Source: Puniceicoccaceae bacterium (GTDB taxonomy: Bacteria > Verrucomicrobiota > Verrucomicrobiia > Opitutales > Oceanipulchritudinaceae). From it: a DNA stretch of 61,486 nucleotides. Positions 3,588 through 56,900 of this stretch are shown here, piece after piece. The stretch covers positions 1 to 61,486 of the forward strand of contig JBFOMH010000022.1 in assembly GCA_040830765.1 (NCBI GenBank). Direction: 5' to 3'. How positions within the stretch are numbered: position 1 is the first letter of the stretch; every line of letters begins with the position of its first letter. Both the position numbers and the translations under genes were made by a program. Under the pieces are notes generated by a model. The model had not been told where the DNA came from. It made no database searches and saw only the letters and a list, made by a program, of their open reading frames with translations.

Positions 3588-3697
3588 AATATGCTGCTCC
3601 TTTGTAAATGGCAGAATGCGGGAATTGGAACCTTCTCTCAAGAGAATTTAGGTCCGAGGTGTTTATTTAATTTTTTTTAACACGCTACTTTACGCCC

Positions 3698-33414: not shown

Positions 33415-33417
33415 TCC

Positions 33418-38500: not shown

Positions 38501-40793
38501 GCAGATTGATGAACACCCGCATGAACTGTCTCCAGAGTTCGGCGATATTGGCGGGTAAGTCTGCTTGTTTGATGTAATTCTCCACCTCATCCAGGTCTTC
38601 GACGAGTGGACGCCCTTGAAACACGCGGGTCAGGTTGTCATTCCGGGCGAGAAATGCTCCCTCCTCGAGGACGGATATGGCCGTCTTGACCTTGGTATCG
38701 ATGAGACCCTCAGGATCGTCCTCAATGGTGGTACCCCCCCGGCAGCCCAAGAGGATCTCCCTTGTTGAAACAGATATGCTGTCATCGCGCCCGCTGCGCC
38801 GCTCAGCTGTTCTTAGTGCTGACAGGATTTTCCGGATATCTGACTCATAGATTCTTGAAAAGGCGCCCATGCTGAACTGCCGTTCGAGATCCTTGGCGCT
38901 GTAAAGGAGAACACACTCCGCCGGCTTCCGGTCACGACCGGCTCGTCCGGCTTCCTGCAAGTAATTCTCCAATGACCCCGGGACATCCGCATGGATGACT
39001 AAGCGGATGTCTTCCTTGTCGATACCCATCCCAAAAGCGTTGGTCGCACAAATGACCTGGATTTCATTGGCAATGAACCGGTCAAGGATGTCCTTCTTTT
39101 CATCCGGATCCAGACCGGCGTGGAAGAACTCGGCCTTCCACTTGAGCCCTTGAAGAATAAGGGCAGTTTGCTCTGCATGTTTTCTTGTTGCGACGAAGAC
39201 AACAGCCGCACCATTTATCCCTTCCAATCGATCCTTCAGTATTTCGTGAATCCTTACAGCTTTTTGTGTGCTTTCAACCGGCTCCACCCGGTAGGCGAGA
39301 TTCGTCCGCTCGGCCCCACCATCCAATACCAGCAAATCCTGTCCAAGCTGATCTCTGAAGTGCTGGGATATCTCATCCTTTACATCCTCCTTGGCTGTAG
39401 CCGTCAGGCAAACGACCGGAGCAATCTCTTCAATGTGGGTAAATTCCGCCAGCTCACGAATGAATCGTGCAATGTACAAGTAGTCGGGACGAAAATCATG
39501 TCCCCATTTTGATATGCAGTGGACCTCATCACATACCCAGTAGGCGATATCCCGGGAAGCGATAGCGCTGCGGAAGGATGGATTGCGGAGTTGTTCGGGC
39601 GAGACATAGATGATCCCGATACCGCCCAGACTGAGCTCTTCCAGCAGCTCGCCTCGTTCGGGCGGGGTGAGCAGGCCATACAAGGCTCCAATGCAACGCA
39701 CTCCTGTCTTCTTGGCCAGGCCATCAACCTGATCTTTCATCAAGGCCTGGAGAGGTGAGATGACGACAGTTAGCGACCCATCCCGGTAATACCGTTGCAG
39801 AGCCGGAAGTTGGAAACAGAGCGATTTCCCCCCGCCAGTTGGTAAAATGGCCATTATGGGTCTTCCCCCGATCGTCTGCCGGACGATTTCCTCCTGTAGG
39901 CTGCGTGCTGGATCAGTTGGTAAGCTGGGTTCCGGCCTAAACGAATCGTAATTGAAGAACTTCTTGAGTTGCCGGACCGGATCATGCGTTTCCGAACAAT
40001 ATGTACAGGATGCATCACCGCAGGGTACGGATCTCAACTCATGCATCACATCGTAAACGCCCGGGAACTGGCGCTTGACCCACGGGGGAACTATCGAGTC
40101 GGTTCCGGCTACCCGGATCCATGCCGACACGTAGGCCAACGAAATCCACATTGGGGGATCCGTTGTATCGCTTACCAGTCGACTCAGGCCTGCATGGCAA
40201 AATCGTTCGGGATAGCGTTCTTTGAAGAGCCGGAGCGCCTCAATTGGATCTACTACATCCGCCTCCAATAAATTGGAAATCAGGCCTAATCCGGCTTTAA
40301 CCTGCCCGGGCAGATTACCAGAGGAGAGCAGTGCCTGGAGAATTGACCAGTCGGCTAGCTGGTAGTCACCCAGTGCTTGCAGGGCATCCTCCGCTATCTG
40401 TCGACTGGCCTCCGCGTCATTAAGCGGATTGCTCTTCGATGCGGTCACCAGCTTATCGTTCTTGATCAGTCGGTGATAGGGTTTCTGCGGAAAGGCGAGG
40501 GGAGAGAGGAGCAGCGTGTCAAGGACCGGAAGCTCTAAGAGATTGGGACACGACTTTGTGTCAGCAATGACGGGCAGGTCATGCCAGAGAATGTTGTGCC
40601 CGCCAACAAACCTTGCCTGGCCCGCAATCTCCCCAAGGCGGGAGAAAACCTGCTTCCTTTCTTTAGTGGACTTTCCAATCTGCCGCTCGTCCCCATAACA
40701 GTAGCCGACTTCACGGATTTTCCCGTCCAGCGTCGTCTCGAGGTCGATGAATACCCCCTCTAAACAGAATGAATTTACTGATTTGTCGGCCAT
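35511..40793 (-). CDS. Exonuclease-like / RecQ (SF2) / UvrD (SF1) multi-domain helicase fusion
   Basis: N-terminal IDLET...GHNILWHD...DTL...NPLNDA. RecQ motifs PTGGGKS, DEVHCISKWGHDFRPDY, TATA, AFGMGIDK, QEAGRAGRD. UvrD motifs AGPGSGKT, VDEYQD, GDDDQSIYGFR, NYRS, HRAKGLEF, EERRLYYVAMTRA. Start is either 40793 or 40826. Confidence 0.88.
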   Translation of the reverse strand: MADKSVNSFCLEGVFIDLETTLDGKIREVGYCYGDERQIGKSTKERKQVFSRLGEIAGQARFVGGHNILWHDLPVIADTKSCPNLLELPVLDTLLLSPLAFPQKPYHRLIKNDKLVTASKSNPLNDAEASRQIAEDALQALGDYQLADWSILQALLSSGNLPGQVKAGLGLISNLLEADVVDPIEALRLFKERYPERFCHAGLSRLVSDTTDPPMWISLAYVSAWIRVAGTDSIVPPWVKRQFPGVYDVMHELRSVPCGDASCTYCSETHDPVRQLKKFFNYDSFRPEPSLPTDPARSLQEEIVRQTIGGRPIMAILPTGGGKSLCFQLPALQRYYRDGSLTVVISPLQALMKDQVDGLAKKTGVRCIGALYGLLTPPERGELLEELSLGGIGIIYVSPEQLRNPSFRSAIASRDIAYWVCDEVHCISKWGHDFRPDYLYIARFIRELAEFTHIEEIAPVVCLTATAKEDVKDEISQHFRDQLGQDLLVLDGGAERTNLAYRVEPVESTQKAVRIHEILKDRLEGINGAAVVFVATRKHAEQTALILQGLKWKAEFFHAGLDPDEKKDILDRFIANEIQVICATNAFGMGIDKEDIRLVIHADVPGSLENYLQEAGRAGRDRKPAECVLLYSAKDLERQFSMGAFSRIYESDIRKILSALRTAERRSGRDDSISVSTREILLGCRGGTTIEDDPEGLIDTKVKTAISVLEEGAFLARNDNLTRVFQGRPLVEDLDEVENYIKQADLPANIAELWRQFMRVFINLPEDAPDAVERFAEVPAMARIYEIEKEKHGRFWNRYRPIFGTLNDMADAGLIKKDLLISAIVKVDIAASSDLTRKRWIHVENQMLNALREKDPNPEGAVPLSLKRLNTSLSNQLGEKTLVEEIPKIMELWKRDRPRIDGGASAFISKKHGTGYLVELPDGWDPIVNSVDLRQNAGALLLEYILRLAREQFGKGRHEIEFSESELLDLLKEDIMFAGSTSRSLSDIIRFVLVSLHDQGVIVLKKGKALFTQSMQITLKKDADGKYTKRFGKAHFDRLEIYYQEKNFQIHVMAEYAKLGMDSLTAHLKLISDYFELGNAEFANRYFAGRSKELELATGMESYLQIVESLGNKDQQAIVAAPERQNMLVLAGPGSGKTRVVSHRCAYLLRVRRVRPRSILVVCFNRHACLTLRRRIYQLVGDDARGVTIQTYHGLALSLLGRTFADEGAKSPPETIDFDSLITDATEYLRSPSDDTEEQEDTLRSRVLRGYQHILVDEYQDISQREYDFLSEIAGRTLNDSDQKLSILSVGDDDQSIYGFRDANITFIQKFKEDYQAEIHYLVQNYRSTSNIIHSANQLIRLNKDRMKTDHEIRVNEGRKSHPPGGDYEKLDAFRKGRVQVIESNEPLYDAALVLREMQKIRELNPDTTWNQFAILSRNKADLNPMRAVLEAADIPVDWRADTESLPSPFRIREIHQWLLRLQAADSETWTPENLTNLLTEHTEKYGNNEWCQLLYQISEEWKADCGDGDFPVRFLRDFYTEALQEHKREKHNHTGVILTNAHRAKGLEFPHVFILSPHWMTIGTITEVEEERRLYYVAMTRAEQTLTLFKSPQLVKWLECLHGSAILQRTWEPPPNHRERVDSICDLRYDIIGLDEIFISFAGLRDAQARIHKELSAISTGTPLFLHRNGEKIEIRTANRVAVASLSAKGGTKWADRLDHIQSVFTKAIVRRYKEDSEIPSGMTVRCDSWEIPIVEVVWREKTEPAAMVAEEAGPYGVQ

Positions 40794-40856
40794 ATACGAT
40801 CCCAGTGATGCCACGTGTCTAGGCATTTGGGATCAATTGGTCAACTCTGGGGAGCT

Positions 40857-41453
40857 TCAGCGAGTGGTTGAGCTATCAGCGGCTTGTTGGGCCTTAATGT
40901 GAGGTTCCCACGGTAATTCAAATGATCCAACAAACCCTCCAACACCTTTCCTTGTATACTTAGATTCCATTATTGTAAGAAGTCGCTCCAATGTCTTTTC
41001 CGAGGATCGTTGCCTATTAAGACTAAAAGCATCCCACTCTCCGCTTTCAAAGTGATTCTTAGAATTCTGTATATGAACTCGATTACGAAGTTTCCTCAGT
41101 TCATCAAGTGCATCGTATATTGATGGATCTTCTCCTAGTAAATTTTTGCTTTTTGCGTTGGTAATATATTTTGCAAATTCATCTATAGTTTTAGTCCTAA
41201 TCTCTTCAATTACGCTTTCTGGAATATTTGGTACTCCTTCGAGTACGTAAGAGTTTATTCTCAGATAAAGATCATATAACACTGCTTCGGCGATCGAACC
41301 AATCGTGACAATGATCGGTTTTCTTAAAAATTTCCGAACTTCGTAACTACCATTGTTCTGAACCTCGTAAAGAACCTTAAGGGTTCCAAGATTATGGACA
41401 ATATTATCCCCCAAGCGAAAGCTACCCATAAAGTCGCTACATATTGTTTTCAT
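40857..41453 (-). CDS. Hypothetical protein, HEPN-like (putative RNase)
   Basis: Helical, AT-rich 198-aa ORF with GSIAEAVL and LRKLRNRVH, matching the E...R-x-H arrangement of HEPN domains. Confidence 0.55.
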   Translation of the reverse strand: MKTICSDFMGSFRLGDNIVHNLGTLKVLYEVQNNGSYEVRKFLRKPIIVTIGSIAEAVLYDLYLRINSYVLEGVPNIPESVIEEIRTKTIDEFAKYITNAKSKNLLGEDPSIYDALDELRKLRNRVHIQNSKNHFESGEWDAFSLNRQRSSEKTLERLLTIMESKYTRKGVGGFVGSFELPWEPHIKAQQAADSSTTR

Positions 41454-41714: not shown

Positions 41715-42524
41715 ATGGTATTTGCCCGCACACGAACGGCCTGGAAACGGGTCTTCCTTGCTCTGGTCGTCCCGCTGACCGGGGTAGCCCAGTTGGCTCC
41801 CGAACGGGACATTCTCGCGGAGCTGCTGGCGGCGAATGGGGACTGGCTGGCGAGTGACCAGGACTTCCGGGAATTCCGGGAAGCGGAGTCGCCGGACGAG
41901 TGGGAGATCCAGGACTATGCGGAGTTTGTGGCCGGATTGAAGCGGAGGGTGATTATCCTCTGCCAGGAGGCCCGGGAGGCGGGCGAATCCCCCGAGGACG
42001 TGGGGGTGGACTGCGAGGAGCTGAGTCAGCAGGCGGAGGATGCGAGCAACCTGGCGGAAGCCGCAGTCCCGGACCGTCCCATGTCCGCGGAGGAGCAGGA
42101 AGCGGAGTTGCTGGCGAAGATGGAACGAATTGAGTCGGAATTCGACGAGCTGCTGATGTCGGAACAGGAGATGGTCTATCGTGAGGAGAGCGGAGGCGCA
42201 GCGGGTGGCGGTTCCGGAGGCGGTGGCGGTGGCCAATCCGGTGGCGGTGGCGGTGGCTCCGGTGGGGATCCGGGAGGCGAGGAAGAACCGGCCGGGGCGA
42301 GTGGTCCCGGTGGCGGGGTTGCTGCCCAGGGAGGTAATGAAGGTGGTACCGGACCGGGAATTCCGAAGGAGGGTGACACGCAGACCCAGCCCGAGCTGCC
42401 CCCGGCGGCGGATGATGACATTGTTGCGCGTCAGTTACGGGAAGCGGCTGAGAACGAGACGGATCCGTATTTAAAGGAACAGTTATGGAAAGAGTATTGG
42501 AAGTACAAGAACTCGAGGAAGTGA
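41715..42524 (+). CDS. Secreted acidic hypothetical protein with poly-Gly linker; first gene of the envelope operon
   Basis: Signal-like N-terminus, Gly-rich tract at about 42190-42350, C-terminal DDDIVARQLREAAENETDPYLKEQLWKEY. Confidence 0.7.
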   Translation: MVFARTRTAWKRVFLALVVPLTGVAQLAPERDILAELLAANGDWLASDQDFREFREAESPDEWEIQDYAEFVAGLKRRVIILCQEAREAGESPEDVGVDCEELSQQAEDASNLAEAAVPDRPMSAEEQEAELLAKMERIESEFDELLMSEQEMVYREESGGAAGGGSGGGGGGQSGGGGGGSGGDPGGEEEPAGASGPGGGVAAQGGNEGGTGPGIPKEGDTQTQPELPPAADDDIVARQLREAAENETDPYLKEQLWKEYWKYKNSRK

Positions 42525-43762
42525 ACGGCCGGTGGCGGGCGATCGGTGTGCTGGCCCTGGTGGGCCTTGTCCTCGGACTCGGGGGCTGTACCTCGACCTA
42601 TCCGACCGTGGAGGTTGAGGAGGAGGTGGTCCCGCTGCAGGCAGCCCAGGTGGACCTGCCGGAGCAGGAGCTGCTCGACGTGCGCATTGCGGTCCTGGAT
42701 CCCGGGGAGCTGCCGCGCTCTGAGGACCAGGCCCGCGGGCTGAGCGACGACATCCGGGAGGCGGAATCCCGTTACATGGCGGTGGAGCTGAGAAACGCGA
42801 TGGAGCAGTCTGGTTACTGGGGGGCGGTGCGCGTTGTGCCCGATGCCTCCCCGGGGGATGAAGTGCTCATTACCGGCGAGATCATCGAATCGAACGGCGA
42901 GGAGCTCACGCTGCAGATCAGTGCCACCGACGCGACCGGGGAGAAGTGGTTTACGGACGAGTTTGATGGAGCGGTCGACATCGACATGTACGATGAGGCC
43001 CGGGCCGAGCAGCGACCAGTCTTCGGGAACGTTTACAACGACATCGCCAACCGCATTACCCAGCACCGCAACAAACTGACCCCGGCGGAGATTGCCCGGA
43101 TCCGGGCGACGGCGGAACTGCGCTTTGCCGAGGATATTGCCCCGGACACCTTCGAGGGCTACGTCATTAACAATCCCAGAAAAGGGACTTACCAGCTGGA
43201 TCGTCTCCCGGCCAAGGACGATGAGATGCTAATGCGGGTGCAGCGCATTCGGGGCCGGGATGCCATGCTGGTCGACCGGCTCGACGCCCATTACACGGGC
43301 CTCTACCGGGAGATGAAGGACGACGAATATTTCTCGTGGAGGAAATCGCGGCTCCAGGAGATGAACATGATCCGCGAAGTCGACAAGGAGAAGAACCAGC
43401 AAATGGCCCAGGGTGTCGCCCTGATCCTCGCGGGGGCCGCCATGGCGGCTGCCGGAGCCAATACCTCGGATGAATCCTTGTCCGCCGCCATGGACACGAT
43501 GGCGGTTTCCACGGCCGCCATTGGCGTGGTCGGGGTGGTCAATGCCCAGCAGATTTCACAGCAGGCCGATATCAACAAGGCCGCCCTTGAGGAGCTCGGG
43601 GAATCCTTCAGCGGCGATGCCGCCGCCATGGTGATGGAAGTTGAGGGAGAAACGGTGGAATTAACCGGATCGGCCGAAGAACAGTATGCCCAGTGGCGCG
43701 AAGTCCTCAAGGACCTGCACCGGGTCAAGACAACGGGAGAGAACGGGGATCCCGCACCCTGA
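42521..43762 (+). CDS. Lipoprotein of unknown function
   Basis: GTG start overlapping the upstream TGA; lipobox LGG|C; Gly/Ala-rich hydrophobic hairpin near the C-terminus. Confidence 0.75.
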   Translation: MNGRWRAIGVLALVGLVLGLGGCTSTYPTVEVEEEVVPLQAAQVDLPEQELLDVRIAVLDPGELPRSEDQARGLSDDIREAESRYMAVELRNAMEQSGYWGAVRVVPDASPGDEVLITGEIIESNGEELTLQISATDATGEKWFTDEFDGAVDIDMYDEARAEQRPVFGNVYNDIANRITQHRNKLTPAEIARIRATAELRFAEDIAPDTFEGYVINNPRKGTYQLDRLPAKDDEMLMRVQRIRGRDAMLVDRLDAHYTGLYREMKDDEYFSWRKSRLQEMNMIREVDKEKNQQMAQGVALILAGAAMAAAGANTSDESLSAAMDTMAVSTAAIGVVGVVNAQQISQQADINKAALEELGESFSGDAAAMVMEVEGETVELTGSAEEQYAQWREVLKDLHRVKTTGENGDPAP

Positions 43763-43776
43763 ACGACTGATCTGTT

Positions 43777-45234
43777 ATGGGACAGGATCCTGAAACACCC
43801 CTGCCGATCCGGCGCGTCAAGGACAACAACGCGCTCAGCCCGACCGCTGTCGCCGTCACGGCGGCTGTCTTTGTCATCCTCGTCTCCTGTTGCATCCTCG
43901 TCATCTTCATCCTGCCGGCAAAGAGCGGGACCGATCCGGCCCAGGCTGCGCTCGACGGTACGGCGGAGTCCGTAGCGCTGCAGGGAGCGATCGATCCCGA
44001 ACTGAAAAACAAGACGGACCAGGCCCGCCAACACGCGCTGGCCCTGCAGGCGCGGCTGGAGAGCGAGGGCGTCGAGGTATGGGGACTGGACACCCTCCAG
44101 ACGAATTACACCGAGGCGGAGGCAGCCCTGTCGAGCGCCCAGGAGGCTTATGCGGATGGTGTCTACCAGGAGGCATTGACGGCCTACACCACAGCCATAG
44201 GACTGCTTGAGACGCTGGACGCCAGTCGCCCGGAACGGATTGAAAAGGCCCTCGCGGCTGGGGAGTCGGCCCTGCAGGCCGGGGATGCAACCGAGGCGAA
44301 ACGAAACTTTGAAATTGTCCTCTCCCTCGACCCGGCCAATGCAACAGCTCTCGACGGCCTGGAAGCGGCGAAGCTGCAACCGGCGATGCGCAAACTAATC
44401 GGGGAGGCGGAGTTGGCGGAGTCATCCGGTGACCTGTTGGGCGCCCTTGGACTCTACCAGCAGATCCTGGCCATGGATACCGATCGTCCGGAGAGTCTGG
44501 CCGAGGTCGCTCGCCTGCAAGCGGCGATCGAGGAAAAGGCCTACCAGCGGGCGATCAACGCAGCCGTGCAGGCACTCCAGGCAGGCAAGCTCGATGAGGC
44601 ACAGCTGGCTCTTGCCGCGGCCCGTGCCATTCGGCCGGAGGGGGCACTCCTCAAGGAACTGGAGGGTGAGCTTAATGAACAGCGCCTGCTGGACGACATC
44701 AGCCAAATGAGGCAGCAAGCGCTCAGCGCGGAGGCCACGGGCGACTGGCACACGGCCGTCGATGCCTATACTGCCATCCTAAAAATCGACTCAACGATTG
44801 CCTTCGCCCAGACAGGGATCGTGCAGGCCGAGAAGCTCGCCCGCTTAAAGGATGACCTGCAGATGTATTTGTCCGATAAGGACCTCCTCTTGTCACCGGG
44901 CAATGTGGCCCATGCCCGCGAGCTGGGGACCCTCGTCGTGGAGGCGCGTCCAGCAGGCACCCTCCTGCACAGCATGGCGACCGAGCTGCTCGATACCCTG
45001 GTGGCCTACGAGACGCCAGCGCTGGTGCGGATCACTTCCGACGGCAAGACGCAGGTCCGGATCTTCCGGGTCGGCCTGCTGGGCACCTTCACCTCGGTCG
45101 AAAAGGAACTGCTGCCCGGCCGCTATGAAATCCAGGGAACCCGGTCGGGCTACCGGGATGTATCCTTTACCTTCACGGTCCCGCCCGGGGCCGCCGATTA
45201 TGCCATCACCGTCACATGCAAGGAGAAGATTTGA
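43777..45234 (+). CDS. Membrane-anchored TPR-like helical protein with C-terminal PEGA-like domain
   Basis: One TM helix, Ala/Leu/Glu-rich helical repeats (AKRNFEIVLSLDPANATALDGL), C-terminal LLPGRYEIQGTRSGYRDV. Confidence 0.75.
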   Translation: MGQDPETPLPIRRVKDNNALSPTAVAVTAAVFVILVSCCILVIFILPAKSGTDPAQAALDGTAESVALQGAIDPELKNKTDQARQHALALQARLESEGVEVWGLDTLQTNYTEAEAALSSAQEAYADGVYQEALTAYTTAIGLLETLDASRPERIEKALAAGESALQAGDATEAKRNFEIVLSLDPANATALDGLEAAKLQPAMRKLIGEAELAESSGDLLGALGLYQQILAMDTDRPESLAEVARLQAAIEEKAYQRAINAAVQALQAGKLDEAQLALAAARAIRPEGALLKELEGELNEQRLLDDISQMRQQALSAEATGDWHTAVDAYTAILKIDSTIAFAQTGIVQAEKLARLKDDLQMYLSDKDLLLSPGNVAHARELGTLVVEARPAGTLLHSMATELLDTLVAYETPALVRITSDGKTQVRIFRVGLLGTFTSVEKELLPGRYEIQGTRSGYRDVSFTFTVPPGAADYAITVTCKEKI

Positions 45235-47714
45235 ACCCCGCGCTCCGTATCGATTCATCCGGTACCTCGCATGATCTGCATGCGGGTGACCTGCCGCTGG
45301 TCCTCTCCCTGGCCGGCGGGAAGCTCGTACTCGCGAGCGATCCAGCACAGGCCGACGCGGAGGCTTGGCTGGAGGCCGAGGGGGACGGGATCCACTTCCG
45401 GGCGGCACCGGAGGCAACGGTCCCGATCAAGTACAACAACGCGCCGACCGGGGCAGATTCCGTCCTGCTAAAGGAGGGCGATTCCGTGCAGGTGGCGGAT
45501 GTCATTTTCAGGGTCTCAGTCACGGAGGGGACCACGCTCCTCCGGCATGATGCCCATTCCGGCGAGACGACACTGCAGTTTTCCAAACCCAAGGATGCGG
45601 AGGTGCCCGTTGCGCCCGTGCAACCGGCCAAGCCCGTGGTCGCGGAGCCGAATCCGGCGGACCAACCCGCCCCGGACGTCAGCCCACAAATCCGTCCCAT
45701 CGAGCAGAAGCAAGCCAACTGGACGATGCGCCTCATCCTCATGGCGGTGTTCCTGCCCCTGATTGTCGGGCTGGTCTTTGTCCTCATCGTGGCCTCCGTC
45801 GAGGTGGAGATAAATCCCGCGCCTGACGAAGTTGCGGTGGGGCGCTTTCCGTTTGCCATCAAAATGGGCGAGCGCTTCATGGCCATTCCGGGAACCCACC
45901 GGGTCCAGGCGGAGAAGGCCGGCTACCATGACTTGAACGAACGCGTCGCCGTCGGCTACGGGGATGATCCGACCTTCACATTCACGATGAACAAGCTGCC
46001 GGGCCAGATTGTCCTGCGCACGGAGCCTGTGGAGGGGGCGGAGGTCTACGTGGACGGGGAACTCGTCGGAACCACCCCGCTGACGGCCGAGGTGGAGGCA
46101 GGCAGCCGTCAGTTCCGCTTTCTGGCCGAGCGCTACCTGCCGCATGAGGAGCTGCTCGAGGTCGAGGGCATGGGGATCGAGCAATCGATTGACGTCGTTC
46201 TAAAACCCGGCTGGGGAACCCTGCAGGTAACGAGTGTCCCCGAGGGGGCGGAGGTCCGGCTGAACGGGGATTCCGCCGGCGCAACACCCTTGGAAATTCT
46301 GCCCATGGCAGGTAATTACACGGTTTCCTTTCACCTCGACGAATACCAGGAAGCCAGCCGGGAAGTTGAGATCCAGCCCGGAGAAGTGGTCTCCCTGGAA
46401 ACGGTTGTTCTGGTGCCTCTCGAGGGACGGCTCACCATCCAGGCGGATCCGGAAGGGACGAACATCATGCTCAACGGGGAATTCCTCGGAACCGCGCCCG
46501 GGGAGTTTGTTGTCCCGGCGATGAAGGCACTGGAGCTGCAATTCCTCAAGGGCGGGTATAAGCCGCAGGAGCAAGTCATCGAGCTGGAACCGGACGCGAC
46601 GGAGTCGATCCGCATCAAACTGGAGCCCGAGTTCGGAACCGTCTTCGTGACGAGTAATCCGGCGGACGCGGAACTCTATGTGGACGGCGTGCAGCAATCC
46701 TCCGCCTCCAAACGACTCCGTCTGAGCACGCTCCCGCACGTCATTGAGATCAAGAAGGATGGGTACGAGACCCGGACCCTTGAGGTGACGCCCAATCCAG
46801 GCGTGGCAAAGAAGCTCGATATCCAACTGGAGACCTTGAGGGAGGTCCGCAGCAAGCAGCCGGTTGCGGAAATAAAGACCGGTGGCGGACAGGTCCTGCG
46901 GGAGATCCGCATCCTCGATCCAATCACGATTGACATGGGGGCCTCGCGGCGGGAGGCCGGCCGCCAGAGCAATGAGCTGCAGTATCAAGTCACCCTGACG
47001 CGTAGTTTCTTTATCAGTACACATGAGGTGACCAATGCGGAGTTTGCCCGCTTCAATCCGGAACATGATTCCGGTAGCTTTTCGGGCCATCGACTGGACC
47101 GGCCGGACCAGCCGGTGGTCAGTGTGAGCTGGGATGCTGCTGCCCGTTACCTCAACTGGTTGAGTGAACAGGACGGCCTCCAGCCGGCCTATGTCGAGAC
47201 GGGTGGGGCGATGGCGCCCGTGGTTCCGGTGACCAATGGCTACCGCATGCCTACGGAGGCTGAATGGGCCTTTGTTGCCCGCTACGGGGGCGATGCCCGG
47301 CCGGGCGTCCAGCCCATCAAGTATCCCTGGGGGAACGAACGGACTCCGCCCGCGGAGAGTGGCAACTATGCCGGCACGGAATCGGTCAACGGCATCCCCC
47401 TCGTCATCCAGTCGTACAAGGACGACTTTCCTGCCTCCGCGCCTGTTGGGGAGTTCGCCCCGAACGGCGCTGGCATTGCCGACCTCGGTGGCAACGTTTC
47501 CGAGTGGTGTCATGACTACTACGATCTTCGCCTGATGATGGACAACACAGTCCTTGTGGATCCGACCGGTCCCTCATCGGGCCGTTTCCATGTCATCCGC
47601 GGCTCCAGTTGGCGCCATGGCGGAATCAAGGAATTACGATTAACCTACCGGGATTACGCCGAGGAGGGGCGTAACGACCTCGGCTTCCGGATTGTCAGGT
47701 ATGCTGATGAATAG
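45231..47714 (+). CDS. FHA-like / TM / multiple PEGA / FGE-sulfatase (SUMF1-fold) protein
   Basis: TTG start with AGGAG upstream, overlapping the previous TGA. PEGA repeats (TEPVEGAEVYVDG, SVPEGAEVRLNG, ADPEGTNIMLNG, SNPADAELYVDG). FGE-fold motifs HEVTNAEF, PVVSVSW, YRMPTEAEW, DLGGNVSEW, GFRIVR. Confidence 0.85.
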   Translation: MNPALRIDSSGTSHDLHAGDLPLVLSLAGGKLVLASDPAQADAEAWLEAEGDGIHFRAAPEATVPIKYNNAPTGADSVLLKEGDSVQVADVIFRVSVTEGTTLLRHDAHSGETTLQFSKPKDAEVPVAPVQPAKPVVAEPNPADQPAPDVSPQIRPIEQKQANWTMRLILMAVFLPLIVGLVFVLIVASVEVEINPAPDEVAVGRFPFAIKMGERFMAIPGTHRVQAEKAGYHDLNERVAVGYGDDPTFTFTMNKLPGQIVLRTEPVEGAEVYVDGELVGTTPLTAEVEAGSRQFRFLAERYLPHEELLEVEGMGIEQSIDVVLKPGWGTLQVTSVPEGAEVRLNGDSAGATPLEILPMAGNYTVSFHLDEYQEASREVEIQPGEVVSLETVVLVPLEGRLTIQADPEGTNIMLNGEFLGTAPGEFVVPAMKALELQFLKGGYKPQEQVIELEPDATESIRIKLEPEFGTVFVTSNPADAELYVDGVQQSSASKRLRLSTLPHVIEIKKDGYETRTLEVTPNPGVAKKLDIQLETLREVRSKQPVAEIKTGGGQVLREIRILDPITIDMGASRREAGRQSNELQYQVTLTRSFFISTHEVTNAEFARFNPEHDSGSFSGHRLDRPDQPVVSVSWDAAARYLNWLSEQDGLQPAYVETGGAMAPVVPVTNGYRMPTEAEWAFVARYGGDARPGVQPIKYPWGNERTPPAESGNYAGTESVNGIPLVIQSYKDDFPASAPVGEFAPNGAGIADLGGNVSEWCHDYYDLRLMMDNTVLVDPTGPSSGRFHVIRGSSWRHGGIKELRLTYRDYAEEGRNDLGFRIVRYADE

Positions 47715-47943
47715 ATCGAAACGCACATGGTGCTTTATCGGCATCTCTCTGGTCCTGTTCCTGTCCGCCGTGCTGCTCCCGGCCCAGGCCGTTGAGGAGG
47801 AGCCTCAGGAGCCTGTCACGGATGAGGAAGCAACTCCCCCGGAAGACACCGAACAAGAACCAACCCCATCCACTACGGAAACTTTCAACCCGACCGAGGA
47901 AATTCCGGCCGACCAGGCGGTCGATTTCCCGTCAGACATCTAA
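47707..47943 (+). CDS. Small secreted acidic protein
   Basis: Signal peptide ending AQA, acidic linker, C-terminal FNPTEEIPADQAVDFPSDI. Overlaps the upstream stop. Confidence 0.7.
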   Translation: MNRSKRTWCFIGISLVLFLSAVLLPAQAVEEEPQEPVTDEEATPPEDTEQEPTPSTTETFNPTEEIPADQAVDFPSDI

Positions 47944-47952
47944 GAGAAACCT

Positions 47953-48741
47953 ATGAAAAATTCATTCGAGTTCATCTTCTCCCTCTTCGCGCTTCTGCTC
48001 TCCTTCATCATCGTCCATGCGGCTTACGTGGGACTGATCCGGCCGAAGGCGGAGGCCTTCATGAACGAGCAGGACGCAATGATGGAAGTGAATCCCGACT
48101 ACGTCCCGGAGCGCTCCATATTTGTCGTCATCCAGGACTTCGAACAGGAGGCGTGCTTCATCCTCATGTTCTGGGCGCTGGCGATCCTCGGATTCAAGTA
48201 CTGGGATGCGAATAACCAGAAGAAGTTGCTGGAGCTGGATTTCATCGGCCTCCCGGAGGACACGCCGGTGACCCCGGCCATTTCACCGAAGATTATCAAG
48301 AACATTGAGACCATTCCCCCAAGGCAGCAGGAGTTCCTGCTGCCCCGCTTGCTGACAGGTTCCCTTGGGCGCTTTGTCTCCACGAAAAACGTCCAAGATG
48401 CGGCGACGGAGATCAACAGCCTCTGCGACCAGGAATCCGACCGCCTCGATTCCGAGATGTCGATCATCCGCTACATCGCCTGGGCCATTCCCTCCTTCGG
48501 ATTCATCGGCACGGTGCGGGGGATCGGGGAAGCGCTCTCGCAGGCCCACCGGGCCGTCGAGGGAGACATCACCGGTGTCACGCGCCACCTCGGGGTGGCC
48601 TTTAATTCCACCTTCATCGCCCTCGCCATCAGTATCGTTCTGATGTTCATCATCCACCAGGTGCAGCTGTACCAGGACCGCCTCGTCCACAAGTCCGGAC
48701 AGTACTGCTCGGAACGCCTCATCAACCGCCTGAGTCCCTAA
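47953..48741 (+). CDS. MotA/TolQ/ExbB family ion-channel protein
   Basis: Four TM helices; AIPSFGFIGTVRGI and LGVAFNSTFIAL signature helices. Confidence 0.9.
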   Translation: MKNSFEFIFSLFALLLSFIIVHAAYVGLIRPKAEAFMNEQDAMMEVNPDYVPERSIFVVIQDFEQEACFILMFWALAILGFKYWDANNQKKLLELDFIGLPEDTPVTPAISPKIIKNIETIPPRQQEFLLPRLLTGSLGRFVSTKNVQDAATEINSLCDQESDRLDSEMSIIRYIAWAIPSFGFIGTVRGIGEALSQAHRAVEGDITGVTRHLGVAFNSTFIALAISIVLMFIIHQVQLYQDRLVHKSGQYCSERLINRLSP

Positions 48742-48753
48742 GCCCGATCCATT

Positions 48754-49842
48754 ATGCGCAAGCGCCGGGAGACAAGCGCCTTCAGCCTTTCCTTCCTCGA
48801 TGTCATGTGTTGTGGCTTCGGGGCGGCCATCCTGCTTGTCATGATCCTAAACGGCAAGACGCTCCAGAAACGGACGGAAAAGCAGGCGGACCTCCAGACC
48901 GAGATTGAGCGGCAGGAAATCCTCATGGAGCACGCCGAGGCGCACTTGCGTACTTTGCAGGCAGCGGTCGAGGAGACCGAGCTCACGGAGGGACAGCTGC
49001 GCAACCGTATCCAGACCATCGAGCAGGCAATCCAGGCGGAGCTGCAGGCCCGTACAGAGACCGAGGAGGAGATCTTCAGCCGGGAAGGGGAGATCGATCG
49101 CCTGACCCGCGAGATCCAGTCCTTGCAAGCGAGTCGCGAGGAGCTGGCTGCGGGCGATGCGGAGTCGAGGACCTCCAACCTGATCGGATTCGACGGGGAG
49201 GGCCGGCGTCAATACCTCACCGGCCTCAAGCTCGGGGGTGAGAATACACTCATCCTGCTCGACATGTCGGCCAGTATGCTGGACGAGACGATCGTCAACA
49301 TCGTCCGGCGCAAGCTCATGCCGGATGCCGTCAAGCGCCGCTCCCCGAAGTGGCAACGCGTGGTCAAGTCCTACCGCTGGATCCTTGCCAACATTCAACC
49401 GGGCAAGCGCTTCCAGACCTATGCCTTCAGTACGTCACCGGTACCGCTGGTCGAGGGGACGGGCGGGACCTGGTTGGACTCCGGCAACGAGGAGCATCTA
49501 CGCGCCTCGCTCGACAGTGTCATGAATTTATCACCACAGGGAGGGACCAATCTTGAGCGGGCTTTCGAGGCGATCAAGTCGATGTCCCCAAGGCCCGACA
49601 GTGTGATCCTGATTACCGACGGCTTACCCACGCAGGGGAGCGGGGTGAAGCAGCGCGGATCGATCTCTGGGGAGGACCGGCTCAAGCTCTTTGAAAATGC
49701 GGTCGAGGACCTGAGCACCCGTATCCCGATCAACATCCTTCTTTTCCCAATTGAGGGGGATCCCGCCGCCGCGGCTGCATACTGGCAGCTTGCCGTTTTA
49801 ACGGACGGCTCATTCATCACTCCAGCGAGGGACTGGCCATGA
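48754..49842 (+). CDS. TM(Asp) / coiled-coil / vWA domain protein
   Basis: N-terminal FSLSFLDVMCCGFGAAILL, a heptad-rich stalk, and MIDAS elements DMSAS, GGTN, ITDG. Confidence 0.85.
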   Translation: MRKRRETSAFSLSFLDVMCCGFGAAILLVMILNGKTLQKRTEKQADLQTEIERQEILMEHAEAHLRTLQAAVEETELTEGQLRNRIQTIEQAIQAELQARTETEEEIFSREGEIDRLTREIQSLQASREELAAGDAESRTSNLIGFDGEGRRQYLTGLKLGGENTLILLDMSASMLDETIVNIVRRKLMPDAVKRRSPKWQRVVKSYRWILANIQPGKRFQTYAFSTSPVPLVEGTGGTWLDSGNEEHLRASLDSVMNLSPQGGTNLERAFEAIKSMSPRPDSVILITDGLPTQGSGVKQRGSISGEDRLKLFENAVEDLSTRIPINILLFPIEGDPAAAAAYWQLAVLTDGSFITPARDWP

Positions 49843-50846
49843 GGAAGAAAGGCAAGAAGCCCATCGAAGTCTTCAGTCTCTCCTTCCTGGACGTGATATC
49901 CTGCGGGTTTGGTGCGGTCATCCTCCTGCTCGTGCTCTCCCTTGCGCTGGAACCCACCACCCGGGAAAAGATGGCGACGGACCTGGCCGTCACGGCACAG
50001 GAGATTGAGGCGGAACGGGAGGACCTCGATTCCCTCAGTCGGCGGCTGCGTATCGAACTGAGGGAAAAGGAAGCGGTGCTGGCAAAGGTGCAGAGCGAAG
50101 TGGAATCCCTCGAGTCCACGCTAGATACGCTGCAGGATGAAAAGCTGGAGGACCAGGCCTCCATTGCGGCCAAGAAGCAGGTCGAGGAACGTCTGCAAAT
50201 CGTCTTCCAGACCCTCGATGAAGAGATGCGCAATCTCCTGCGGCGATCAACCGCCGACCTCGATGACCGCGAGGCGGCGATTGGGGGTATCCCGGTCGAC
50301 AGCGAGTATATCATTTTTATCATCGATACCTCCGGCAGCATGCTGCAACTGGCCTGGCCCATGGTGGTCAAGAAACTGGAGGAAGTCCTTTCCGTTTATC
50401 CCGAGGTGAAGGGCCTGCAGATCATGAACGACATGGGCGTCTACATGTTCCCCGCCTATGCCGGACAGTGGATTCCCGATACACCGTCACGGCGCACGGA
50501 AGTCATCCGGCAGCTCCGCGGCTGGCAGAGCTTCAGCAACAGCAGCCCCGTCGAAGGCATTCAGCAGGCCATCCGCACCTACCTGCGCAAGGACCAGCGC
50601 GTCAGCCTCTATGTCTTCGGGGATGACTTCTCCAGCGGGAATATCAACGCCGTCCTCAACGAGGTGGAACGCATCAACCGCCGCAACGTGTCCGGTGAGA
50701 CCAACGTCCGCATCCATGCATTCGGATTCCCCGTCCTCTTCAGTCATCCGGAATATACCATCAATAGCGTCCGCTTCAGCCACCTCATGCGCCTCCTCGC
50801 CGAACAAAACAACGGCAGCTTCGTCGGATTGACGAGGCTGGAGTAG
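49839..50846 (+). CDS. Second TM(Asp) / coiled-coil / vWA domain protein
   Basis: FSLSFLDVISCGFGAVILL, coiled coil, DTSGS, FGDD. ATGA overlap with the previous gene. Confidence 0.85.
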   Translation: MRKKGKKPIEVFSLSFLDVISCGFGAVILLLVLSLALEPTTREKMATDLAVTAQEIEAEREDLDSLSRRLRIELREKEAVLAKVQSEVESLESTLDTLQDEKLEDQASIAAKKQVEERLQIVFQTLDEEMRNLLRRSTADLDDREAAIGGIPVDSEYIIFIIDTSGSMLQLAWPMVVKKLEEVLSVYPEVKGLQIMNDMGVYMFPAYAGQWIPDTPSRRTEVIRQLRGWQSFSNSSPVEGIQQAIRTYLRKDQRVSLYVFGDDFSSGNINAVLNEVERINRRNVSGETNVRIHAFGFPVLFSHPEYTINSVRFSHLMRLLAEQNNGSFVGLTRLE

Positions 50847-50900: not shown

Positions 50901-53900
50901 TCACCTTTCCTGCACCCGGTACCGCAGTAGGATTTCCGGCATGTCGAACTCGAAGACGGCCTCGACATTGTGCGTACCATCCTGGAGTTCCTCGATGAAG
51001 TTCATCTGGACGGGCACGATCGGAGTCCAGTTGATGAAGTCGGTCGAGAATTCAAACCAGGTCTCGATCCCATGTGTAGCCAGGTCCCGCGTGAAGACGT
51101 AGGATAGGGTCTGATCCGGATTCATGCTGCCGAGCGGTTCATCAGCGGAGGTGGCTGTGAAGGGGTCCATCCCCATGCCGAAGGCGAGGAGATTGGGGAG
51201 CCAGGCTGGTCCGACGATGTCGTTGGGTCCGGAATGCTCCGGTGGAATGCCCATGGCAGTCACCCAATCGGCATAGGTCTGCATGCCTCCCTTCTGCGGG
51301 TCGTAGAGAACTGCAGTAGCGATCGCCAAGGTATCAATGACGGTCCGGTCCCCTGAACCATCGGCGATATCGAGGAAGTTGTACCGTAGGTCGAGTGAGT
51401 CCAGGCCCGTGAGGCCGACCAAAGGCGAAATCTCCGTCAGGTCATTGTTGTCCAATGTCAGCGTGAACAGGTTTGCGGCCCATTGAATTCCCTCAAGATC
51501 CGCAATATTGCGATTGCTGGCATCGAGGGATGTCAGCATTTCCAGGCTGGTCAGGTTGATGGGCATGCCCGGATAGATATCGAGGGCATCTTCGACTGCC
51601 GCCCGCAGGTTGGAGTCACGGAACTGGACAGTAGTCAGGTCTTCTTCCGTTACCCGGATCAGGTTGAGGGGGGAGGGGAACGACGCGTCCGGCGGCCCGA
51701 ACTGGCCGGTCAGGAGCAGGTCGCCCGAGGGGAGGGGATGTCCCCGGCTGATCACTTCCTCTGTGTCATAGTCCTTGTATTCCAGGTTGACCGAGAATCG
51801 CGGATCCAACCGGAGGGAGTTTTCGAACAAACGGGCAATGCCGTCAACCTGGGCACCATCGTAGAAGTCAAAGTTGCCCAGGATATAGAGGAATCCGTTC
51901 ATCGGAACAATGTCGTGGACGGCCAAAGTGGTCGGATCCATATCCGGATCGAGCGCCAGCACAGGAGCGGGGTGTGCCGGATCCACCCAGCCATGCTTGT
52001 CGACAACAATGAGAGGGGAATTCTCCTGGACGATGGAACGTCTTGAAGGCGGTTCCGCATTGGCCTGGGAGAGGAATTCCGGGCAACTGTGGACGGCCTC
52101 AAACCGGCCCCCGATCGCATAGCCGCCATTGGGCAATGGGATGACCGCATGAATGGCTGCTGTGGATTCATTGGTTTCAATAGTTCCCGGGGGATAATAT
52201 ACGTCTATGGAGAATGTCGAAACCTCACCGGAGTTGGTGAATGCCAGTGGGGTGAATGTACCGTCGATGGATCCGTCCGCATTGTAGCGAGCGAGAACGG
52301 GGTAACCGTTTGCGTCCGGGATCGAGACGAGCAGGCGATTCAAAGGATCGATGTGCCAGAGTTGCTTATGCCCCTCCCCGATGGTCCCTTCGTCGATACC
52401 GGTGTAGAAAACAGGCCGGGCGATTTCAGTGTGCTGAGGAACAGCACCGTCGAGGGTCCACCATATTTCGACAGGAACGTAATCGCCATCGAAAAGGTCC
52501 AGCGATGAGGAACCGATCACGCGCGTTCCCACAATGGCCAGTTGATCGTTCTTTAGGAAAATCGCATTGTCTTCTATTTCCGAGACGGTGGGCATGGCGA
52601 ACCGTTCCCCGGTATAGCTCGAACCTGTGAATCCAGCGAGGACCATTGTCGGAATGGTGTCCCGCTGTTCCTCGTATAAGGCATACCAACCATCCTGAGT
52701 TCCCGCAAAATCAAGCCAGCCACTGAAGATCGGCCCGACCGGGAGCTGACTCAATGGATCGAACGCTTCGAAGGAACCTGACTGGAGATCAATCGCAATC
52801 GGGCTTTCAACCTCAAGGGATCCCATGCGGTCATAGGGCTCGACTGCTCCGTGGAGCAGAATGGTATCCGCTGCCATGGGAATGACCGACTCAGGGAAAC
52901 TCATCATGAAGGGCCGGGGTGGTGCAAAGGACGGCAGAAAATTACCGTTCAAGTCCACTTTCATGGCACCGTAGAAAGGACTCTGCCCGACATAGGAAAC
53001 GTAGTCATAGCCAGCGCTGACCACCGTGCCCGATATGACGTATCCGTCTGATAGTTCATCAATGAAAAAGTGGTAATCGGTCAGGGAGAAATCCTCTTGA
53101 ATCGTTACCTCAGCGGTAGCAAATGTGCGTGTTGTATCCAACGTACCATCTGGCAGGAAGGCATGTGTTCCCCCGGATCCGGTGACGATGTAGGAGTCAT
53201 CCAGGAGGACAATCATATCCCGTGGATCCCGATCACGCATGACGGATACAGCGGCATCCCGATTGAATGACCAGTCGAAGCTGCCATTGTGGTTCAGTCG
53301 GACGATCGGATAGTAATCGGGAAGCTCCCCAAAGGAGTCGGTGAGTTGCGGACCAATAAGCAATTTCCCATCGGATTGCAGGCCGATTGACCGGACATAA
53401 TAATTGTTCACTCGCTGGATTTCCGGATTAAACGAATAGTCGACGCTGCCGCTCGAATACAGGCGGATCAGTCCTGGTTCGGGGAACCCGTTCACATGGT
53501 CGAAGCTTCCAGCCACGTAAATGAATCCTTCATCATCCTCAAGAAAGCGACCCCAGACAGCGGGCCCATAGCGACCCGGGTCGGCTCTTTCTTCCAGGGT
53601 GGTTGTGTACCAATTTGGATTCGGCATGCCGTTTGGAAACAGGTTAACAATGTAGCCGATCTCTGCATCGGTGTTCGGTTCCCGGACTTCACCCACGACA
53701 ATGGATCCGTCGGACAGCACCTTGGCCATGCGCACAAGATCGACCGGATATGGCTGGAAGACCGGGTCCAGTTCACCGGTCGGAAGGATCTTCAAAATTG
53801 ACTGTTTCTGCCCGAGACCCTTGCCGGCAACGACCAGTGCCGATCCATCCTCGAACGTATCCAGGATCAAAGCTGATGCTAACTCCGCTTGAAGGGAGAA

Positions 53901-56900
53901 CCCCGGATCCGGCAAGCCGGTGACTGGATCTGCCCGCAGGAGGGGGCCCGTCAGCTCATCCCCAAATCCACTGTCTATGACAAATCCCGAAGATAACCAG
54001 ACACTGCCGTCCGGACCCGTCATGGCGCGATAGAACGCACCCACAAGGTTGGGGAGAAGGTCAGAAAGCAATGGGTCCACATTCCCAACAGAATCCGTCG
54101 GCACGGTCGTCACCTCGAGCGTTGCGGATGCACCTTCCACAAGGCTAATCCGCTGGTCCGCAATGGGGGTGTATCCAAGGGTGTCCGTGAACTCCACGAT
54201 GATTTCCCCAGCGGGGACCCTGACAGCTTGTCCAACGTCCTGCCATTGGCCGCCTTCAACGCGCCATTGGAATTCGGGACTCCCGGTTGTGTTGAGGTTC
54301 ACCGTCAGTTCGGCGAATTGAATGTTTGGCTGAACCTGCAGGTAAAATCCCTGGCGATCGTCCAGGTCCCAGAGCGTGGATATGGAGCCATAGGCCAGTC
54401 CTTTAGCAGGATCGGCATAGGTTAATCTGGGGGTCCAATCCGTTCCAAAATCGATCCCGAAGGTTTCCCAGAGCCACTCATCGACACGCACAATACCATT
54501 CACCTCATCCCACATCATTCCTTCCCAATGCAATCCGGCCGATTGATAGGCGGTAAAGACAACAGTTCTGGATTCACGATTTAAGAAACGGCTCTGATCC
54601 ACACTCCCGTAATCCGGTGAAAGTGATACTAGCTGCTGCTGATATGCATTAAGGTCGCCGCTCCATGTCCAGATCATGAGTCCGGAATTGTCGCCAGTCC
54701 GGTAGCTCCCCACAATCATTGTTCCGTCTGCGGAAATGGCCGTTGCTTCACAGCTTTCGGTCCCTTCCGGTATCGGTAGAGCGCTCAAAAGGTTATCTTT
54801 CCAATACAATGGGCGCTGTGATGGGTTGTGGTATTCATCGTATAGGAAGACAAACCCCGCAGCCACGGACCCGTCTTCTGATACATCATACAGCCAAACG
54901 TCTGGAAGTCTGAATGAACCGGCATTGTCCCATTCCCCGACACCCGTCAAAACAGGCATGTTCCAGCTGGCTGTTTGGGCATTCCATGTCCAGATTGCTC
55001 CCTCCCGCAGAACGGTGCCACAAATGATCGTGCCCGCTTCATTAACGGCGATTGCCCGGCCGAGGGTCCGACCCGAGTAGATGTTTGGATCGGCATTGGG
55101 TGGCAGAGGTAGATAAACAGGGGTGTAGGCATCCCCTTCCTTGTACCAGACGATGGGGAGAAGGTTTCCCGTTTCATCAAATCCACGCCCGACAACTATC
55201 GACCCTTCCGCTGTCGCGTCCTGGGTTGTGACAAACGTACCGGAGGGACTGGCATCGGGCAAGGTAGGAGCCGGTTGCAAACCATCATCCGGGGTCCAGA
55301 TGGTGGGGGTCCAATATCGTTCATGGAAATTACCCGTCACGACTGAGCCGTCGCTCGAACCACCGCGAACTTCGGTCCTTATGTCCATACCCCCGGAAAG
55401 TAACTCGAGGTCGCCAGCAACCAACCGGTAGTCCGGGTCGGTGACATAGGCCGCGTCGTAAATATTTTCTCCCGGCATCAGGTAAAACTCTACTTTTGGA
55501 GTCCAGAACCCGGGAAGGTGCTGAAACTCAATCTCGGCAATGTACATCCGGTTGTTCAGTCTTCGCTCGGTATATCCGCTATACCGCCAGGCATCGTGGT
55601 CCGCCCATGCTTTCCAGGCGCCCAGCCCGTCCCGTATGTTGACCGTGAGGGTTTTCTCCGGATCGATGGTGACATCAAAGCTGTGTTCAATCGAGGCATT
55701 GGCATCGGTGATGACCACCTTGTAGGTCCCTGCATCGGACAATTGAATTTCGCTCAGGACAAGGGTGTCCTCCCCTTCGCCTTCAAGCAGACTCTCACCA
55801 AAATACCAGGCATAGGTGAGGTCCGTGAAGCTGACGGCATCCACCGAAAGGACCACTTCGTCCCCTTCAATGATCTCGGGTAGCTCTGAGTAGGAAACCA
55901 GGGTTGGTGTATCGACCGGGTATTGCGGCTCGGAAACGATAGTGGCCGACGGATTGGAGTTTTCCAGGCTGGCAAGCGCTGCGGCCTGAGTGGGATCCCC
56001 GCTGAAGTCGATAAAGTTTTCCTGCAGGTCAAGAGCCTCAATGCCGGTCCAGTTGGCGACATTGGATATGTCGGTAATTCGATTGGACTGAACGTAGACG
56101 TGGGTAAGGTTATTCATTTCTGTCAAGGGTGACAGGTCTGAAATGAAATTGTCCCGTAAGTAAATCCATTGAAGTTCCGTGAAGAGGGAAACCAGACTCA
56201 GGTCGCTGATACCGTTTCCCACGAGGGCGATACTTTTTAAGTGGGTGAAGTCCAGGAGATCAGCAAACTTTAGACCCGTTTCCGCGAGATATAGTGATTC
56301 CAATCTGGAAAGGCTGAGCAGGGGTGCCAGATCCGATACCGGATTCTCCGAAATGTCCAAAAGCGATAGATCGGTATAAGTAACAATAGGAGTCAGATTT
56401 GAAATTCCATTATTTCGGATCCAAAGGCTGTTTAGAGATGGAATGGATGCCAGTAGCGAGTATTGGCTGAAGCCCGTGCCGGAGAGATCCAATTGGCTCA
56501 CTGAACTGAGAACGGAAAGGAAGGAGAAGTCGGTCAGCGGCAGGTTGCGAAGATAGAGATTTCGTATAATGGGAAAACAGGCGAGATCGGGGATTTCTGA
56601 GATGGGATTTTCGTTGAGGTTCAGTGTCGCCAAATTGGGCAAATCAGCCAACGGGGCGATGCTTTGAATTTCATTGTTCTGCAGCTGAAGGGTGACAAGA
56701 GAGCTAATGGAAGCTAACGAGCTGACATTTAATATATTGTTATCATTCAAAGTCAGCGTCCTCAGGGTGCTGCTCATGTCATGATTGATGCCTGTGAGGT
56801 ACCGGATTTGATTCCACCCCAGATACAAGGATCTAAGTGATGTCAGAAGAGTAAGTGGTTCTATACTCGTTATTTCATTCTCCCGCAGGTCTAAATATGT

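Follow-up and report, generated by a model that had tools for sequence, protein, structure and literature searches.

A conserved eight-gene operon of a Puniceicoccaceae bacterium encodes a probable vWA-headed variant of the 5:2 ion-driven motors

Introduction

Ion-driven motors of the 5:2 type drive flagella, the Ton and Tol systems, the type IX secretion system (T9SS) and Zorya. A variant headed by von Willebrand factor A (vWA) domains occurs in Gammaproteobacteria, Alphaproteobacteria and Verrucomicrobiota, where it has no known job. Its closest description (PMC12204202, Mol Biol Evol 2025, section 8 and Fig. 4c-d; cited here, like the other papers given by PMC number, for the part of the text available) is a computational one: TolQ-like pentamers with heterologous pairs of vWA proteins carrying a trans-pore helix (TPH) were predicted with AlphaFold 3, Idiomarina proteins being the seeds, and that text gives no function for them. 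Here we describe an operon of eight genes, termed g1 to g8, located at positions 41715-50846 of the forward strand of contig JBFOMH010000022.1 from a Puniceicoccaceae bacterium (assembly GCA_040830765.1; genome of 3.99 Mb, 97% complete). The whole stretch analyzed, 61,486 nt long, is termed the window. The operon is real, conserved and hitherto uncharacterized; it appears to encode a 5:2 motor of variant type, for which a function can only be inferred.

The operon shares with the TPH-vWA motors of PMC12204202 a TolQ-like gene tightly linked to genes for vWA proteins tethered by a transmembrane (TM) helix, a heterologous vWA pair with a trans-pore Asp in each member, a Thr ring in the TolQ-like subunit, and the absence of syntenic tolR, exbD or motB (from Pfam scans of the window, with no ExbD on the contig). 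Its core was therefore already predicted in 2025. The available text of that study deals with the three-gene core only: in its main and supplement text PEGA and sulfatase are not mentioned and FHA appears only as FhaC, and the partners encoded by g1 to g5, the minimal gene set, the asymmetry of the two heads and the fold of g2 are not part of it. A preliminary description of this DNA, made from the sequence alone, had proposed a self-contained, motor-based trans-envelope operon outside the characterized systems. That proposal is supported by the results below, except that the eight genes do not form an obligatory set and that the core had been predicted before.

Results

The g6, g7 and g8 proteins form a probable motor core

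Gene g6 (47953-48741, +) encodes the MotA/TolQ/ExbB-type channel, or A subunit, already recognized in the preliminary description, and matches MotA_ExbB with 49.8 bits (Pfam, cut-off 22.9). Residues G183, G186, T187, G190 and T220 are invariant in the alignment, T187 and T220 being so in 38/38 sequences (19/19 + 19/19). They are in register with G144, G147, T148, G151 and T181 of Acinetobacter TolQ, and the two Thr are 33 residues apart, the same spacing as T148/T181; in that organism the Thr pair and Asp27 of TolR are essential (PMC11970459). When the g6 profile was compared with the PDB no chain was retrieved at E 0.1, and the single-sequence search reached MotA only at E 0.91.

Genes g7 (48754-49842, +) and g8 (49839-50846, +) begin with basic residues, after which come F-L-D and a hydrophobic stretch of helix. 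In this predicted trans-pore helix the Asp (D16 in g7, D18 in g8) is invariant in 19/19 aligned and 18/18 further sequences of each gene. A coiled coil, of about 100 residues in g7, leads from the helix to a vWA head, VWA lying above the Pfam cut-off in g7 and VWA_2 below it in g8 (21 bits); the g8 profile retrieved only coiled-coil noise from the PDB. The TM, coiled-coil and vWA parts of both proteins had been noted before, the ExbD/TolR-type Asp helix had been missed. Both proteins align at 27% over residues 1-176 and make up a heterologous pair, and two matches of the g7/g8 type are present in each of 12 genomes. We also examined 20 related loci, all from Gamma- and Alphaproteobacteria, obtained by scanning species genomes with g6 and then locating the other members by tblastn: g6, g7 and g8 are adjacent in 20/20. 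PF02472, the periplasmic domain of ExbD/TolR, has no match at the locus, g7 and g8 carrying vWA instead. The genome holds eight ExbD and 14 TonB_C matches, none of them on the contig of the operon. Because the Asp helices are invariant, the g6 signature is TolQ-like, and neither ExbD nor TonB_C is found on the contig, we conclude from the sequences that g7 and g8 are the motor's own B subunits and not accessories. By analogy with the known motors, an ion-driven 5:2 assembly with a g6 pentamer around a g7/g8 heterodimer is highly probable.

The register of the A-subunit signature and the essential B-subunit Asp are shared with TolQRA-Pal and ExbBD-TonB. The B subunits differ from those of both systems by having a coiled coil with a vWA head in place of the ExbD/TolR domain, and the locus has no TolA or TonB, TolB propeller, Pal or receptor. 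Among the 46 window open reading frames (ORFs) scanned with Pfam, neither TonB nor Tol-Pal came up, nor did a TonB-dependent receptor or any flagellar family, as had been claimed.

The two heads differ in their metal sites. The standard pattern of a metal ion-dependent adhesion site (MIDAS) is DxSxS...T...D, and the residues of g7 and g8 that follow it are those which we take to be the MIDAS. In g8, D163, S165, S167, S235 and D262 are invariant in 37/37 sequences. In g7, the site is intact in the window copy and in all 19 full-operon rows, and altered in 15 of the 18 additional rows, where D170 is replaced by E or R and T265 by A. Taking into account that the MIDAS of g8 is invariant whereas that of g7 has mostly decayed outside full operons, g8 is likely to be the working grip of the two heads.

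Conservation of the operon and its minimal gene set

The tblastn searches located g4, g6, g7 and g8 in 20/20 loci, g2 in 19, g3 in 18 and g1 in 16. Gene order is that of the window in all 20 (one of them, L010, is truncated), so that the operon is not a chance grouping; the preliminary description had made its proposal depend on such joint conservation. In 10/20 loci, a gene of about 450 amino acids (aa) with a C-terminal FHA domain lies between g6 and g7 (e.g. L001:10808-12169). At the corresponding place, after the channel gene and ahead of the first vWA gene, L033, L034, L036, L038-L040 and L066-L068 also encode a cytoplasmic protein of this kind, of about 450-500 aa; the window lacks it.

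We next considered 60 relatives from the same order as the window genome, which are kin and hence not independent. Strong g6 matches (E <= 3.4e-48) were obtained in 11/60, and weak ones in six others. The g7/g8 pair is present in the same 11 relatives, and so is g3, which was found in none of the other 49; two of the 11 carriers were in the g3 query alignment. The g3 gene often lies on other contigs than the motor. It is also present in 5/5 further carriers, drawn from the genomes of the phylum that have g8 (15/200). No g8 match was obtained in plasmids. By this co-occurrence g3 is a core partner of the motor, with which it would be in contact.

In the reduced form of the system found in the order, g3 is followed directly in 12/13 loci by a gene for a secreted acidic low-complexity protein ending in P-[S/T/A]-x-[L/I/F], a tail comparable to that of g5. 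As g3, the tail protein and the motor persist in this form without g2, the minimal set consists of g3, a g5-like tail protein, g6, g7 and g8. In two g3 loci from another family, no P-[S/T/A]-x-[L/I/F] gene lies directly downstream. A glycine-zipper lipoprotein gene is arranged head-to-head with g6 in 8/16 loci of g2-less relatives, three of which have beside it a DUF4136-like lipoprotein (below cut-off); the glycine-zipper protein may stand in for g2. A second secreted protein encoded after the g5-like gene ends in an amphipathic W-x-x-L-R-R-I-F-G-like helix (L034:3990-4769, L040:14783-15763, L054-L056, L059-L061, L068, L080 and L081); two of these proteins were scanned with Pfam and gave no match. 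It may stand in for g1.

In two genomes, G048 (L033/L064) and G019 (L041/L065), the vWA pair is encoded on another contig than the channel; a dispersed system can therefore look like an orphan MotA/ExbB gene. A distant g6 homologue (G058:C143:6448-7053, E 1.7e-14) belongs to a genome with no vWA-pair or g3 matches. The operon also occurs in two Klebsiella-titled records, L009 and L011, which were assembled from metagenomes and may be mislabelled.

In a g6 tree of 40 rows, the 16 same-order sequences form a clade (support 100/98) that excludes the window copy, which stands among gammaproteobacterial rows without a well-supported placement. The approximately unbiased test does not reject its joining the same-order clade (p 0.153). 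The GC content of the operon (0.616, against 0.564 in the genome and 0.589 at window positions 1-32200) is not diagnostic of transfer. Horizontal transfer of the operon is suggested at most.

Proteins encoded by g1 to g5

Gene g5 (47701-47943, +) encodes a secreted peptide of 80 aa with an acidic linker and a C-terminal P-x-D-I. A g5-like ORF with such an end is present in 19/20 loci, and P77, D79 and I80 are invariant in 18/18 aligned sequences. P-x-D-I is the end of only three of the genome's 54,224 reading frames, g5 among them. The tail is a candidate ligand of a vWA head or of g3; a free C-terminus in which the Pro and the last, hydrophobic residue are fixed would naturally suit such a role. 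Since the Asp of the tail varies outside full operons, the terminal carboxylate would be a better candidate metal ligand than the Asp. A complex prediction with g3 (60-485) and the vWA heads of g7 and g8, with g5 (45-80) as partner, gave scores of 0.73-0.74. The controls gave 0.00 (twice) when the partner was replaced and 0.73 when g3 was replaced; we counted this prediction neither for nor against binding.

The g3 protein (43777-45234, +) is a single-TM protein whose TPR repeats are periplasmic and whose C-terminal domain is PEGA-like. This is the architecture given in the preliminary description; the TPR matches are below the Pfam cut-off, and the PEGA-like domain has no Pfam match and was identified from the sequence pattern in the alignment.

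The product of g2 (42521-43762, +; likely start GTG at 42521, longest ORF from 42485) is a lipoprotein, as expected: the lipobox Cys23 is conserved in 104/108 homologues and a hydrophobic segment in 102/108. The AF2 model (predicted local distance difference test, pLDDT, 87; predicted template modelling score, pTM, 0.84) shows an N-terminal domain (about 40-190) with an alpha/beta fold like that of FlgT, PelC, CsgG and the TolB N-terminal domain (TolB-N). VIA Z scores are 10.6 for the LPHT ring/FlgT, 10.1 for PelC, 9.5 for TolB and 9.1 for the curli complex (Z 9.1-10.6, root-mean-square deviation 2.5-4.6 A, 101-164 residues aligned), and the best Foldseek E value is 6.6e-4. The sequence retrieved nothing meaningful from the PDB and only unnamed clusters from the Atlas. 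Residues 268-365 form a long helical hairpin; its tip, rich in Gly and Ala, is the hydrophobic segment kept in 102/108 homologues. PelC, CsgG and FlgT form rings, as is in part stated in the titles of their structure entries, and the model suggests that g2 may assemble into a ring in the outer membrane, with its helices inserted there.

Gene g4 (45231-47714, +; likely start TTG at 45231, longest ORF from 45216) has four PEGA matches (168.6 bits) and an FGE-sulfatase match (126.8 bits) in Pfam, in agreement with the preliminary description. The FHA-like start that had also been proposed has no Pfam match; it is backed by the likeness of model residues 1-105 to many FHA structures (Z 6.8-8.0), and its ESM Atlas score (0.91) is a lead only. 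In the model we recognize an FHA-like sandwich, one TM helix and five PEGA-like beta-sandwiches; the FGE fold that it also contains is of low confidence (pLDDT < 50 at 702-822). The cytoplasmic FHA-like domain of the window copy is degenerate. The catalytic Cys segment of the FGE domain has no Cys in 18/18 rows, so that the Cys pair near the C-terminus that marks the FGE-sulfatase enzymes is absent. From the model, whose length is an estimate, g4 may be a rod long enough to span the periplasm.

Gene g1 (41715-42524, +) encodes an exported acidic protein (net charge -32), as had been claimed; it is Gly-rich and mostly disordered, with a conserved C-terminal helical hairpin; Pfam, NCBIfam and PADLOC gave no match. 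Many of its orthologues are lipoprotein-like and have an internal P-x-D-I-P motif, at which site the window copy reads PELPP.

Discussion

Proposed mechanism

We propose that the operon encodes a motor driven by the ion-motive force that pulls a periplasmic peptide tail so as to act on the outer membrane; taken as a whole chain this is a plausible reading, to which we give somewhat less than even credence. Five g6 subunits would surround the g7/g8 heterodimer, the Asp helices carrying the ion path, as in TolQR, ExbBD and the assemblies predicted in PMC12204202. The coiled coils, to judge from their length of about 100 residues, would lift both vWA heads some 15 nm into the periplasm. The g3 protein, which co-occurs with the motor, would be the fixed membrane partner, taking the place that TolA and TonB have in Tol and Ton. 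The MIDAS of g8 would then grip the free P-x-x-hydrophobic tail of g5, much as the ExbD/TolR heads capture the TonB/TolA peptide, and rotation would turn the grip into a pull. In the weakest step, the pull would reach by way of g4 and g1 the putative g2 ring with its hydrophobic hairpins in the outer membrane, which might be gated or remodelled for envelope upkeep or repair. In some lineages the kinase of g3 and FHA domains may switch the machine, of which the window copy keeps a degenerate FHA only.

Several results weigh against this mechanism. The g2-type fold is also that of TolB-N and LptE, which are monomeric, so that g2 need not form a ring. Moreover, g2 was found in 1/60 same-order relatives, with no match in 10/11 motor carriers, and thus the outer-membrane step via g2 is not universal; the glycine-zipper lipoproteins showed no homology to g2 (hhalign 10.7%). 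The tail peptide could equally bind the TPR/PEGA part of g3, its gene being the neighbour of g3 in the same-order clade. The tail Asp is not invariant, position x being D/E in nine, N in one and G in two of the 12 reduced-form proteins, and one of the 13 same-order loci has no P-[S/T/A]-x-[L/I/F] gene after g3. The system is present in 0/12 genomes of the same genus; with so patchy a distribution it would not serve essential upkeep. Finally, no experimental study of this family was found in a literature search that left subscription journals largely uncovered.

A broader claim can be made with more doubt: that the operon adds a new trans-envelope class to the Mot, Ton, Tol, Gld and Zor machines. 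Here the vWA head, as it rotates, would seize a secreted peptide by its free C-terminus with an integrin-like metal site, and an outer-membrane pore of alpha-helical lipoprotein would thereby be opened or remodelled. Such a machine might serve secretion or membrane repair and would be kinase-gated in some lineages. The minimal set (g3, g5-like, g6 to g8), the invariant metal site of g8 and the candidate ligand in the g5 tail give the prediction definite targets for mutants and binding assays. Cultured carriers exist, such as Sneathiella litorea DP05 and Sneathiella sp. HT1-7.

Alternative explanations

The operon could instead be a secretion machine analogous to T9SS or curli, in which the motor would drive substrates along g4, g2 would be their CsgG-like pore and P-x-D-I would act as sorting signal. 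GldLM/PorLM is a 5:2 motor with long periplasmic arms, and T9SS/gliding GldLM-GldKN (PorLM-PorKN) shares with our operon the 5:2-type motor and a non-catalytic FGE-fold component. The resemblance of g2 to CsgG/PelC (Z 9-10) and the matches of the g4 FGE domain to PorK/GldK structures (E 6e-25) and to the GldK model (89.5 bits) argue for such a function. Nevertheless, FGE enzymes score higher than PorK in that comparison, and g4 is below the cut-offs of the GldK (89.5 of 350 bits) and GldJ (24.9 of 458) models; the likeness to T9SS and GldK is confined to the FGE fold. Furthermore, g6 is of the MotA/ExbB type, g4 is anchored in the inner membrane and carries PEGA repeats, and the operon has no translocon. 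A search for GldM was empty in this genome and in the control genomes alike, and is uninformative. With only three P-x-D-I ends in the genome, that of g5 included, a substrate family is lacking; conservation across loci does not extend to the flanking genes, and most same-order carriers lack g2. We therefore consider this explanation unlikely.

Somewhat less likely still is a trans-envelope damage sensor and signal relay paralleling TagQ, TagR, PpkA and Fha1 of type VI secretion (T6SS), with a motor that reads the signal or resets it. When the membrane is damaged, TagR, a protein of FGE fold, binds the lipoprotein TagQ (PMC13713981). Kinase-bearing relatives of the operon parallel this parts list and that of RtkS-PpkA, with a lipoprotein, an FGE fold, a TM kinase with a periplasmic domain and FHA (PMC13713981, PMC6082577), and one PEGA domain of g4 resembles a chain within the RtkS-PpkA structure 9k1u (Z 8.0). 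In 7/20 related loci g3 has an N-terminal Ser/Thr kinase, and in 7/7 of these g4 is long (about 810 aa) and FHA-bearing; in the 12 other complete loci g4 has 666-697 aa and no FHA, and g3 no kinase (12/12). The window copy is the exception, and because its g4 keeps an FHA-like domain while g3 has no kinase, it may descend from a kinase-gated form. Here, however, the parts are coupled to a motor and not to a T6SS, and kinase-less operons are the majority (13/20, one truncated). The window g3 has no kinase and the FHA-like domain is degenerate; no Pfam FHA and no T6SS sheath match was found in the 97% complete genome. None of the TagQ, TagR and PpkA models is matched above cut-off. Three of four glycine-zipper lipoproteins match the TagQ model at 14.8-18.9 bits, far under the cut-off of 300, and these matches reflect the zipper only.

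Two further functions seem improbable, each to the same degree. As an uptake energizer, the operon would replace Ton for an outer-membrane transporter or open g2 as an importer; the motor family is shared with ExbBD, and capture of a peptide by the B heads would mimic the pulling of a TonB box. Pfam scans revealed no receptor gene in the window, though, and several ExbBD/TonB sets of the conventional kind are already encoded in the genome. A surface motility or adhesion motor is brought to mind by Agl-Glt, in which a TolQ-like motor acts with the vWA adhesin CglB (PMC9946355, PMC11761067); PMC12204202 hinted at Agl-Glt-like motility for its other vWA family, and flagellin was not found in the genome. 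In our operon, by contrast, the trans-pore helix is predicted to anchor the vWA heads in the inner membrane, away from the cell surface, and no gene for an outer-membrane beta-barrel or adhesin travels with the operon.

An anti-phage system like Zorya, with which the MotA-like channel is shared and to which the patchy distribution, the adjoining low-GC block with HNH and Schlafen/helicase genes and a weak ZorA match might point, is very improbable, since among the PADLOC Zorya models only ZorA is matched (E 0.0013, 15.8 bits) and this over the channel helices only, the operon has no long cytoplasmic tail, OmpA-type ZorB or cytoplasmic effector, and no repeated defence context is apparent among the partly annotated neighbours in the 20 loci.

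Genomic setting of the operon

The eight ORFs are tightly packed on the + strand, with intergenic spacings from g1 to g8 of -4, +14, -4, -14, +9, +12 and -4 nt; the co-orientation and the maximum spacing of 14 nt first noted for them are confirmed. NCBIfam and PADLOC gave no assignment above cut-off for any of the eight proteins, Pfam had no useful match to g1, g2 or g5, and the promoter and terminator scan of the locus remained at chance level. Four of seven listed expression runs were compared with the locus. Short contigs match parts of the operon (99%+); as they also match its flanks, DNA carry-over is possible and they are no proof of transcription.

Both flanks are oriented opposite to the operon. 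Upstream, a low-GC block (32506-41453, -; 0.48 against 0.56 in the genome) encodes an HNH nuclease, a Schlafen-group-3 helicase, a DEAD/UvrD double-helicase fusion of 1771 aa and an unknown protein of 198 aa, and looks like a defence or mobile island. Downstream and convergent on the operon, a gene at 50901-57941 (-) encodes an exported protein of 2346 aa with many internalin-type leucine-rich repeats, an Ig domain and DUF5122 propeller repeats. We set it aside as a substrate of the operon: it is on the opposite strand, and no ORF of similar size flanks g8 in the related loci, where no homologue search was made. Elsewhere in the window, pilin-like genes with N-methyl motifs are located at 1061-3641 (-) and 13719-14213 (+), beside a DUF7305/adhesive-domain gene.

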